From an uncultured Bacillota bacterium (GTDB lineage: Bacteria > Bacillota_I > Bacilli_A > RF39 > UBA660): 64,000 nucleotides of DNA. A program made the position numbers and the translations under genes. Shown here piece after piece: positions 28,963 to 29,744 of this stretch. The notes below the pieces were generated by a model, which was not told the origin of the DNA, did no database searches, and saw only the letters and a list, made by a program, of their open reading frames with translations. The stretch spans positions 895-64,894 of the forward strand of contig CAMOYT010000001.1 of NCBI GenBank assembly GCA_946630315.1, read 5' to 3'. The first letter of the stretch is position 1; the number at the start of each line of letters is the position of its first letter.

Positions 28963-29094
28963 CATATTTTTTATTTGTGATATATTTAAATTACTAATAG
29001 GATAATATCTTGTAATAACTTTATTGATCTTGTAATAATTGTTATTACAGTAAATCTTATCATACCTATTAGGTCGAAATTACATTTTATTGGA

Positions 29095-29110
29095 AGAGAA
29101 GGAAAACTCT
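29095..29110 (+). repeat. Hairpin element, copy A (AGAG-AAGGAAAA-CTCT).
   Basis: One of four similar hairpins (29095, 29579, 61969, 62154). A downstream GATAA box and A-rich/ACTCGG-like tail follow. Confidence 0.5.
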
Positions 29111-29299
29111 CAGTACGACATTGTGGCTAGACAAACAATGATAAAGTCGATGTTGATAGTAGAAATACAAAAAAAATCAACGGCCCCCTGTTAAACCAAT
29201 GATATAATTAGTCTTATCAGAGTCAGTTATATCTAGAAAAATATAAGCTTATTGATTGTATAATAAGTCTCGCAGGAAAAGTAGTTCCTTAGTTATATT

Positions 29300-29337
29300 T
29301 TTGGAATACAAGTAATCATTGGACTTGTATTTTTTTT
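29300..29337 (+). terminator. Rho-independent terminator inside the essC upstream region.
   Basis: atacaagt-aatcattgg-acttgtat hairpin followed by T8. Confidence 0.65.
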
Positions 29338-29578
29338 ATTGACTTTTTTTGTATATGAGTATATACTTAAGACATATCCTAGATAAAAATAGCATTTCTC
29401 AATATATTATGGAAGTTATGAGATTAGAAGTAATCAAAATAATGGAAATAGTAAAAAAGAGAAACCGGGATTCAAGAGAATTAAGGATAAGCTATTAAAA
29501 TTCAAATAACCAACAGGGAATGGACAAGCTCCATTTTAAAAAAAATAACGTGTCGGGACTAGGATATATGTAATTTCT

Positions 29579-29594
29579 AGAGAAAGAAAACTCT
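29579..29594 (+). repeat. Hairpin element, copy B (AGAG-AAAGAAAA-CTCT).
   Basis: Followed by ..ACTGATAAT.. and ..AAAAAAACTCGGAT.., as in copy C at 61969. Confidence 0.5.
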
Positions 29595-29653
29595 ATTGAT
29601 AAGTGTCTAATGTAGTTTAACTGATAATTAAACGGTTTAGATAAAAAAACTCG

Positions 29654-29681
29654 GATATATCGTGTGATATATCTTTTTTTT
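29654..29681 (+). terminator. Rho-independent terminator immediately upstream of the essC promoter.
   Basis: gatatatcg-tg-tgatatatc hairpin plus T8. Confidence 0.7.
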
Positions 29682-29744
29682 GCTTTTATTTTTATAATAA
29701 TAATGATATACTAATATAGAATAGATAGAATAGAGAGAGTATGG

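Follow-up and report, generated by a model that had tools for sequence, protein, structure and literature searches.

Two predicted tandem RNAs with complementary hairpin loops, related to the Rfam PGK motif, precede an essC-like gene in an uncultured Bacillota bacterium

Several described RNA systems resemble, each in part, the arrangement reported here. The nearest of them, the PGK RNA motif (Rfam RF03040), reportedly described by Weinberg et al. in 2017 in Nucleic Acids Research (NAR 45:10811), the main text of which does not mention PGK, is an orphan candidate cis-regulatory RNA with a P1-P2-P3 layout. The guanidine-II (mini-ykkC) riboswitch is thought to depend on the loop-loop contact of two hairpins, one of which lies beside the expression platform, while antisense kissing pairs such as ColE1 RNAI/RNAII, CopA/CopT, and Sok/hok carry complementary 7-nt loops, one of them with a YUNR U-turn. 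Tandem riboswitches and small RNA (sRNA) genes, such as LhrC1-5 of Listeria and the csRNAs of Streptococcus, form serial promoter-terminator units beside a target locus, and the T-box is a lineage-wide, multi-copy, promoter-proximal leader ending in a terminator. In this study, we analyzed a 64,000-nt stretch of DNA from an uncultured Bacillota bacterium (the window; G+C content ~27%; all positions are window coordinates), in which a non-coding gap of about 780 bases (28963-29756) separates a Peptidase_C26/GATase gene (28273-28962) from an essC-like type VII secretion gene. Our comparison with related loci and contigs, designated L001, L003, and so on, indicated that this gap carries two tandem predicted RNAs, A and B. 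By its predicted structure, B is a divergent member of an RNA family whose 5' domain is the Rfam PGK motif and A belongs to a diverged sister class of the same family, and the two probably act as a pair via mutually complementary hairpin loops.

Unit B has the P1-P2-P3 layout of the PGK motif, in which GAGAAAGAAAACUC forms the P2 hairpin and ACUGAUAAU the loop of P3, and it occurs in the same kind of organism, namely uncultured gut Firmicutes-like metagenome-assembled genomes (MAGs). It differs in that P1 is weakened and J1/2 instead pairs with the 5' end of the transcript (a helix designated P0), and in that the gene 3' of it is essC rather than pgk. The 92 positions of the Rfam model end before a conserved box and a terminator with a complementary loop, both of which are described below. 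The resemblance to guanidine-II is limited to the dependence on two hairpin loops: its ACGR tetraloops are bridged by guanidinium and control translation, whereas the contact in the window family would consist of 7 Watson-Crick pairs joining a large 5' domain to the apex of a terminator. As in the antisense pairs, the two loops at essC are 7 nt long, lie on two separately promoted RNAs, and include a U-turn (here CUGA), but A and B do not arise from opposite strands of the same DNA, their complementarity is confined to the loops, and their canonical relatives hold both loops in one molecule. Unlike the tandem sRNAs, A and B are heterotypic and mutually complementary and are not redundant copies. 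One loop also resembles a codon-anticodon partner in the manner of a T-box, but neither Stem I nor the T-box sequence was seen here, and the downstream genes are not related to amino acids.

We ran Rfam in two ways, with curated gathering thresholds and in E-value mode up to E 10 on the region. No family matched 28963-29756 at the gathering threshold, and neither RNase P, tmRNA, SRP, nor 6S RNA matched the region up to E 10; an assignment by Rfam to RNase P, tmRNA, or SRP, which the initial annotation had named as fatal to its proposal, did not occur. T-box likewise gave no Rfam match on the region, and low-scoring matches to CRISPR repeats, Ref84, and snoRNA in E-value mode were dismissed as chance. 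The sole relation to Rfam was a sub-threshold alignment of PGK over its full length (model positions 1-92) to 29541-29634 in unit B (34.9 bits, E 0.028; cut-off 50.8). This sub-threshold match recurred 5' of the essC homologues of L003, L005, L008, and, twice, L006, with orthologous B copies scoring 33-41 bits, while the B-type element of L023 reached 51.7 bits and the canonical members of the family, at 75-98 bits, lay above the threshold. B also has the architecture of the motif, in which P1 encloses the P2 hairpin GAGAAAGaAAACUC and a P3 hairpin with the loop ACUGAUAAU comes next. Adjacency to pgk is absent from B and also from most members that pass the threshold, which precede HU, Fic, reverse transcriptase, and membrane-protein genes. 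The name PGK therefore understates the family, because the Rfam model passes its threshold on canonical members whatever gene follows. Literature searches returned nothing on the extended architecture, on a terminator loop complementary to the P3 loop, or on any tie to type VII secretion; the supplement describing PGK lay outside these searches, so that a prior mention of the terminator is possible.

To collect the wider family, a pattern of conserved blocks was scanned against one genome per species. The related contigs at secretion loci were gathered via homologues of the EssC N-terminus. The pattern scan yielded 107 stretches, about 103 of which were clearly homologous, and their hosts were nearly all MAGs labelled uncultured Bacilli, Tenericutes, Erysipelotrichaceae, or Clostridium sp. 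CAG:914. The downstream genes encode PGK, HU, Fic, LPG_synthase_TM (an LPG-synthase-like membrane protein), reverse transcriptase, an ABC ATPase, PPIase, EssC, an LTA-synthase-like sulfatase, a small membrane protein, a 119-aa 'CPNYYNIVNF' protein, a His-rich 90-aa protein, and an MTS methyltransferase. Sequence comparison thus shows a multi-copy family, spread across the lineage of uncultured low-GC gut Bacilli and 'Tenericutes'-labelled MAGs and preceding many unrelated genes. In the alignment of 87 non-redundant copies, P3 covaried strongly (6 of 7 pairs changed on both sides), as did the fourth pair of P2 (UA 33, AU 26, GC 6). Together, P2 and P3 were paired in 92.6% of the alignment cells, compared with 79.4% in shuffles and about 40% with a slid partner, and they contained 168 double changes, compared with 47 in shuffles.

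The canonical members extend beyond the Rfam model in a consistent manner. A box, AAACU[C/A][G/A], lies 3' of 100 of the 108 family members, and TTATCAG follows about 18-20 nt past the box in 74 of the 108, where chance would give 0.08 per instance. In 69 of 71 canonical members, refolding placed UUAUCAG at the apex of a covarying hairpin (8-13 bp, -5.4 to -13.6 kcal/mol) with a U-run behind it; a stricter stem detector recognized 25 of these 71 terminators. The canonical P3 loop is exactly 7 nt, CUGAUAA, is closed by A-U, and carries a U-turn motif of the YUNR type. The UUAUCAG apex is its perfect complement, with the complementarity reaching 9 nt in one subfamily. In L028, L043, L049, L062, L081, and L087, the terminator lies 5-25 nt 5' of the ribosome-binding site (RBS) with no intervening promoter. 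By this arrangement, the canonical relatives are shown as predicted promoter-proximal leaders ending in a terminator, and the genes behind leader-type copies would need read-through, because the terminator precedes the RBS with no promoter between them.

Unit B itself is shown by its sequence signals to form a candidate RNA of about 308 nt (29374-29681) that runs from promoter to terminator; units A and B, the second pair described below, their promoters and terminators, and essC all lie on the + strand. The promoter scan found TTGACT and TATACT spaced by 17 nt (29339-29367), which bears out a promoter that the initial annotation had suspected from TTGACT, 2 nt away, at 29341. The 5' strand of P0, AUAUCCUAG (29374-29382), stands 7 nt after the -10 element and, in the predicted fold (z-score -3.0 for unit B), pairs with CUAGGAUAU in J1/2 (29559-29567). 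The sequence most complementary to J1/2 sits 3-8 nt 3' of a promoter of the TTGAC-N17-TATAAT type in 15 of 21 B-type loci, and the P0 strands covary among loci (AUAACCUAG/CUGGGUUAU, UUAACAUAGG/UCUAUGUUAA, UUAGCAUAGA/UCUAUGCUGA, and UUAUCAUAGG/UCUAUGAUAA). P0 was accepted because of this fixed position after the -10 element and this covariation, and because it crosses P1, the two helices would form a pseudoknot or alternatives. The variable insertion that follows (29383-29532) is 52% identical overall to that of L003; it includes a block, CCGGGAUUCAAGAGAAUUAAGG (29465-29486), that is identical in L003 and a hairpin, AAUGGA/UCCAUU (29519-29524/29530-29535), that stays paired there through a change from GG/CC to AG/CU.

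The B-type, PGK-like core (29533-29647) is 96.5% identical to that of L003 and thereby outranks the coding DNA of essC (80%). It comprises P1, CGUGUC/GAUAAG with one mismatch in the model alignment (29549-29554/29598-29603); UGUAAUUU (29569-29576); an intact P2, AGAG-AAAGAAAA-CUCU (29579-29594); an outer helix, UCUAA/UUAGA (29606-29610/29637-29641); and P3, GUUUAA/UUAAAC (29615-29620/29628-29633), with the 7-nt loop CUGAUAA (29621-29627). Both P2 and P3 correspond to the helices that covary in the 87 relatives. The conserved 3' box, AAACUCG (29647-29653), is directly 5' of a predicted intrinsic terminator, GAUAUAUC-GUGU-GAUAUAUC with an 8-bp stem and U8 (29654-29681). Its GUGU loop is ordinary and lacks UUAUCAG. 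The box and terminator together are 94% identical to those of L003, with the differences in the terminator confined to its loop, and at least 23 of the 33 B-type members have a hairpin and a U-run after the box. Unit B thus has what defines the B-type: a PGK-like core, the AAACUCG box, a plain terminator, and P0, the helix formed by J1/2 and the 5' end of the transcript.

Unit A, on the same kind of sequence signals, is shown as a candidate promoter-to-terminator RNA of about 345 nt (28994-29337). Its promoter (28959-28986), which matches the consensus at 11 of 12 positions, consists of TTGACA (28959-28964), a 16-nt spacer, and a TG-extended -10 element, TATATT (28981-28986), and shares bases with the stop codon of the Peptidase_C26 gene 5' of it. 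The 5' strand of P0, CUAAUAGG (28994-29001), lies at the predicted start of the transcript and pairs in the predicted fold with CCUAUUAG (29065-29072). The A-type units of L008, L022, L023, L025, L041, L058, and L114 likewise show TTGAC(A/T)-17-TATAAT with the 5' strand of P0 6-8 nt on, and the A-type helix changes in pairs among loci (CUAAUAG/CUAUUAG vs CAAUAG/CUAUUG). Between P0 and the core lies a lineage-specific insertion with a predicted local hairpin (29007-29050), absent from the A-type units of other loci. Within it, the 12-nt direct repeat ATCTTGTAATAA occurs exactly at 29007-29018 and 29027-29038, as the initial annotation had noted, and an inverted copy, TTATTACA, follows at 29042-29049 and is paired with the first ATCTTGTAATAA copy in the predicted fold. 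The proposal that the repeat binds a regulator was not supported: it was not found in the A-type units of ten other loci and is therefore not a conserved operator, and the insertion containing it recurred without change only in L001 and L002, contigs nearly identical to the window.

The A-type core (29046-29243) was recognized by a covariance model, R2, at 74.1 bits (E 6e-11); R2 was built from 17 A-type sequences with the window excluded, and the E-values of this model and of its B-type counterpart, R1, are rough. Invariant blocks of the A-type alignment mark CUUAUC (29056-29061), AAUUACA (29078-29084), a P2-like hairpin, AGAGAAGGAAAACUCU (29095-29110), a loop, AAACAAUGAUAAA (29133-29145), a box, AAACCAAUG (29193-29201), and a hairpin (29201-29233) with the apex UUAUCAG (29214-29220) that is not a terminator; the 3' strand of P0 (29065-29072) comes from the predicted fold. 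A shows the full set of A-type elements, namely AAUCUUAUCA, CUAUU(A)G, AAUUACA, GAAGGAAAACUU, AAUGA, AAACC, the UUAUCAG-apex hairpin, and a separate terminator. The P2-like hairpin GAAGGAAAACU is among the layout elements that A shares with the B-type; the loop equivalent to P3 has diverged, and of the PGK helices only P2 is recognizable. The Rfam PGK model did not detect A, which is too diverged for it. The earlier suggestion that the gap holds two related copies of a hairpin element agrees with the two cores defined here. Unit A ends in a predicted intrinsic terminator (29306-29337), whose 8-bp stem pairs AUACAAGU (29306-29313) with ACUUGUAU (29323-29330) before U8 (29330-29337). This stem stays paired in L003 via a compensatory A-U to G-C change, the segment being 87% identical. 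Both terminators had been pointed out before, and each was found as a hairpin with U8. The consensus terminator scan, which demands at least 3 G-C pairs per stem, missed them because each stem has only 2.

The two types recur side by side. An A-type element adjoins a B-type element in at least 22 loci, in either order; the order A, B, essC occurs in the window, L003, L006, L008, and L041, and other loci have B, A, and then a gene for a 127-aa 'MGKYNLG' protein or an MTS methyltransferase gene. The secretion loci split the complementary loops between the two elements: B has CUGAUAA and ends in a plain terminator, and the UUAUCAG of A sits on a hairpin that is not a terminator. Within the window, a second pair, C and D, was found on a single predicted transcript (61677-62320) driven by TTGACT-17-TATAAT (61677-61705). 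Its B-type core, C (61923-62033; R1 63.6 bits, E 1.4e-8, with window B but not C in the training set of R1), has the P3 loop CUGAUAA (62007-62013) and the box (62031-62037) without a terminator of its own, and its A-type core, D (62116-62265; R2 46.2 bits, E 3.5e-6), has the apex UUAUCAG (62236-62242). A single predicted terminator closes the transcript at about 62290-62318. The complementary loops are thus arranged as a single hairpin pair (type 1), within one long transcript (C-D), or on two separately promoted RNAs (A and B). All of these loops are 7 nt, and the predicted loop duplexes amounted to -7.2 kcal/mol for A with B and -8.0 kcal/mol for D with C.

The essC-like gene (29747-34310; FHA and FtsK/SpoIIIE ATPase domains of the EssC type by Pfam, 1,5xx aa) appears to have a separate promoter of its own 3' of terminator B. 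An extended -10 element, TGaTATACT (29703-29711), lies there, and TGnTAnnnT occupies the same position between terminator and essC in five further loci (L003, L005, L006, L008, and L041), in agreement with the essC promoter that had been placed after the second terminator. The start codon is most probably ATG at 29757 rather than the listed TTG at 29745 in the same frame, because the N-terminus MLIYILHND aligns with homologues and the RBS, GGUGA, stands at 29747-29751. EssC of L003 is 78% identical to that of the window in protein and 80% in DNA. The gene 5' of the RNA locus varies (rplL in L006, a WXG-like gene in L005), and because the upstream genes differ among loci that share the PGK-like match, the RNAs belong and travel with essC rather than with the upstream gene.

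Taken together, these observations favor, as the best explanation overall and one to which we give about an even chance, two tandem RNAs of an attenuating family whose A-B loop pairing tunes read-through into essC. The family would work by transcription attenuation, with the kiss between the P3 loop and the terminator loop forming part of the decision. At secretion loci, where the loops are split on two RNAs, B would present CUGAUAA and A would present UUAUCAG, so that A would supply the loop missing from terminator B and the two RNAs would act together at essC. Contact between their loops would be made in trans or, once terminator A has been read through, in cis, and the two RNAs would jointly set the share of transcription from the two upstream promoters that passes terminator B into essC, adding to the input from the promoter of essC itself. 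That the downstream genes are so diverse speaks against a metabolite specific to one pathway and favors a global signal or a protein or RNA partner.

Several points weigh against this explanation. Window B fails the Rfam gathering threshold of 50.8 bits. The invariance of P2, part of P1, and the P3 loop in the collected set is partly built in, because the search pattern fixed those blocks. We infer the loop pairing from exact 7-nt complementarity and equal loop size, and it lacks support from covariation because both loops are invariant; when loop covariation was sought in copies off the pattern (L014, L082, and L006), all of them retained CUGAUAA and UUAUCAG. In the shuffle test of P0, the single sequences alone were not significant, with 3 to 57 of 100 shuffles reaching the observed length. 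A conserved antiterminator, sought as mirrored pairing around the box, was not found; the segment before the box pairs well with the 5' arm of the terminator in one subfamily only and weakly elsewhere. Complementarity of the 3' box to J1/2 or to P2, assessed by eye, was likewise inconsistent across subfamilies. A purely cis-acting role is also weakened because many members, including both window units, precede another promoter.

The initial annotation had read the region as two tandem small RNAs or as a multi-stage attenuator controlling essC. Its first half fits, in that each unit has a predicted sigma-70-type promoter, a paired 5' end, a conserved structured core, and a terminator, and essC has a separate promoter; the second half is retained only as a rival, given that the canonical relatives are predicted leaders with a terminator directly before the RBS. 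In that rival, a single long 5' untranslated region of essC starts at promoter A and contains A and B as consecutive leader segments, each terminator is read through conditionally, and the loops act purely in cis. We consider this possible though not likely: C and D share one transcript with no intervening terminator, the canonical relatives are arranged as true leaders, and AT-rich stems with 2 G-C pairs make read-through plausible at both window terminators, but B has a conserved promoter with the 5' strand of P0 exactly at the predicted start, essC has its conserved extended -10 element, and many loci have B before A. If the units are instead autonomous trans-acting small RNAs (e.g., sponges, RNAs that act with a lineage-specific RNA-binding protein, or RNAs that control distant mRNAs) whose adjacency to essC is incidental or loose, one would expect what is seen in each unit, a run from promoter to terminator with another promoter next, and a multi-copy family with invariant single-stranded blocks, four copies of which lie in the 64-kb window. 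The synteny with essC or 127-aa 'MGKYNLG' genes, which persists despite differing upstream genes, and the location of canonical relatives directly 5' of ribosome-binding sites make this rather unlikely.

A reading that denies any RNA-level function, in which promoters, terminators, and repeated or mobile sequence are merely stacked and the direct repeat is a protein operator, draws on the AT-rich sequence, on promoter-like sites that barely exceed shuffles (13 found vs 9.1 expected), and on a 12-nt repeat that is improbable by chance. We regard it as hardly tenable, since the B core is conserved above the adjacent coding DNA, the helices covary, the model E-values range from 1e-6 to 1e-11, and the direct repeat is not conserved. 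Mimicry of tRNA was also weighed, in which the P3 hairpin would imitate the tRNA-Ile(GAU) anticodon stem-loop and tRNA-Ile itself would be bound by the UUAUCAG loops, making the family a T-box-like global sensor that works through loop-loop contacts. CUGAUAA fits the anticodon-loop pattern Y32-U33-NNN-R37-A38 with the anticodon GAU, and equals the anticodon loop of bacterial tRNA-Ile(GAU), such as that of E. coli tRNA-Ile1; moreover, AUC, an Ile codon followed here by A, is exposed at the apex of the folded terminator hairpin. On the other side, nothing like the T-box bulge that binds the acceptor end was seen, the YUNR U-turn alone accounts for the loop pattern, and the downstream genes are unrelated to isoleucine. 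No tRNA-Ile was found in the window or in 60 loci, ARAGORN reporting only two tRNAs in the window, both outside the region, and we judge mimicry very improbable. A more far-reaching proposal, which we consider unlikely, is that the PGK motif, rather than being specific to pgk, is the 5' domain of a lineage-wide RNA switch operating through a 7-bp kiss between the terminator apex and a U-turn loop identical to the anticodon loop of tRNA-Ile. Duplication would have split this RNA at type VII loci into the separately transcribed A and B, which would have to meet via their loops and would form a heterodimer switch in front of essC.

With these relations, an orphan and misleadingly named Rfam motif turns out to be one component of a large family of RNAs that is multi-copy in gut Bacilli, themselves poorly known, and that has a defined full-length architecture of a promoter-proximal 5' domain, a conserved box, and a terminator loop that complements an invariant loop. 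A heterotypic RNA pair recurs at the type VII secretion loci of uncultured organisms whose control of secretion is scarcely known. Should the kissing contact with the terminator apex be regulatory, it would constitute an expression-platform design not described for known riboswitches, and the complementary loops give a hypothesis testable by mutation and compensation.

The coding potential and base composition of the gap were also compared. In line with the absence of a credible open reading frame (ORF) noted earlier, none was conserved: a 49-aa ORF (29349-29498) and an inner 29-aa ORF beginning with ATG (29409-29498) are broken in L003 by 11- and 21-nt deletions. The metagenomic contigs L001 and L002 contain the same locus and differ from the window at two sites only across 840 nt, both G to A (29415 and 29430) and both inside the variable insertion of unit B. 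The two Val-to-Ile differences in these contigs hinted at a 29-aa small protein (29409-29498), which was ruled out by the lack of an RBS and by the deletions in L003. A G+C content above that of other intergenic DNA, as had been claimed, was not borne out (26.2% in the region vs 27.2% in the window, 27.3% in coding DNA, and 19-34% in other intergenic DNA); within the region, only 29000-29299 reached about 31%. An ATG at 29741 upstream of essC is closed by TAG in the window and is in frame in L003.

Further observations concern the surroundings of the RNA pairs. In L006, L022, L023, L025, L030, L041, L042, and L058, the pair and the secretion genes lie directly 3' of the rplJ-rplL operon, with the L10 leader upstream; rpoB usually follows rplJ-rplL in Firmicutes. 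Motifs resembling W-x-G (LWNGNNA, LWQGKNA, FKGWARK) occur in small proteins beside RNA pairs (in L005 upstream of 479 and in L023 upstream of the B-type element) and likewise in the 127-aa ORFs of L022, L025, L042, L074, L080, L086, and L094, and judging by these motifs such proteins may be type VII secretion substrates. The 127-aa 'MGKYNLG' proteins showed marginal similarity (E 0.005) to a 126-aa protein of the window (35047-35427) encoded 3' of essC. OLE RNA (RF01071, 216-222 bits) lies within a few kb of PGK-like elements in L012 (968-1446; Mycoplasmatota label) and L043 (7447-7927; Tenericutes label). Elsewhere in the window, a weak partial R1 match (22.7 bits, 12649-12721) corresponds to a ATACTGATAATAT hairpin within a coding region and is probably due to chance. 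The 1.1-kb gap that holds C-D is followed by a small ORF (about 62398-62668) and then by a gene for a transporter of the Vut_1 vitamin-uptake type (62736-63398). Just past the small genes after essC, a T-box leader (35821-36013; 105 bits, above threshold) precedes a Beta_elim_lyase gene (36070-37518).

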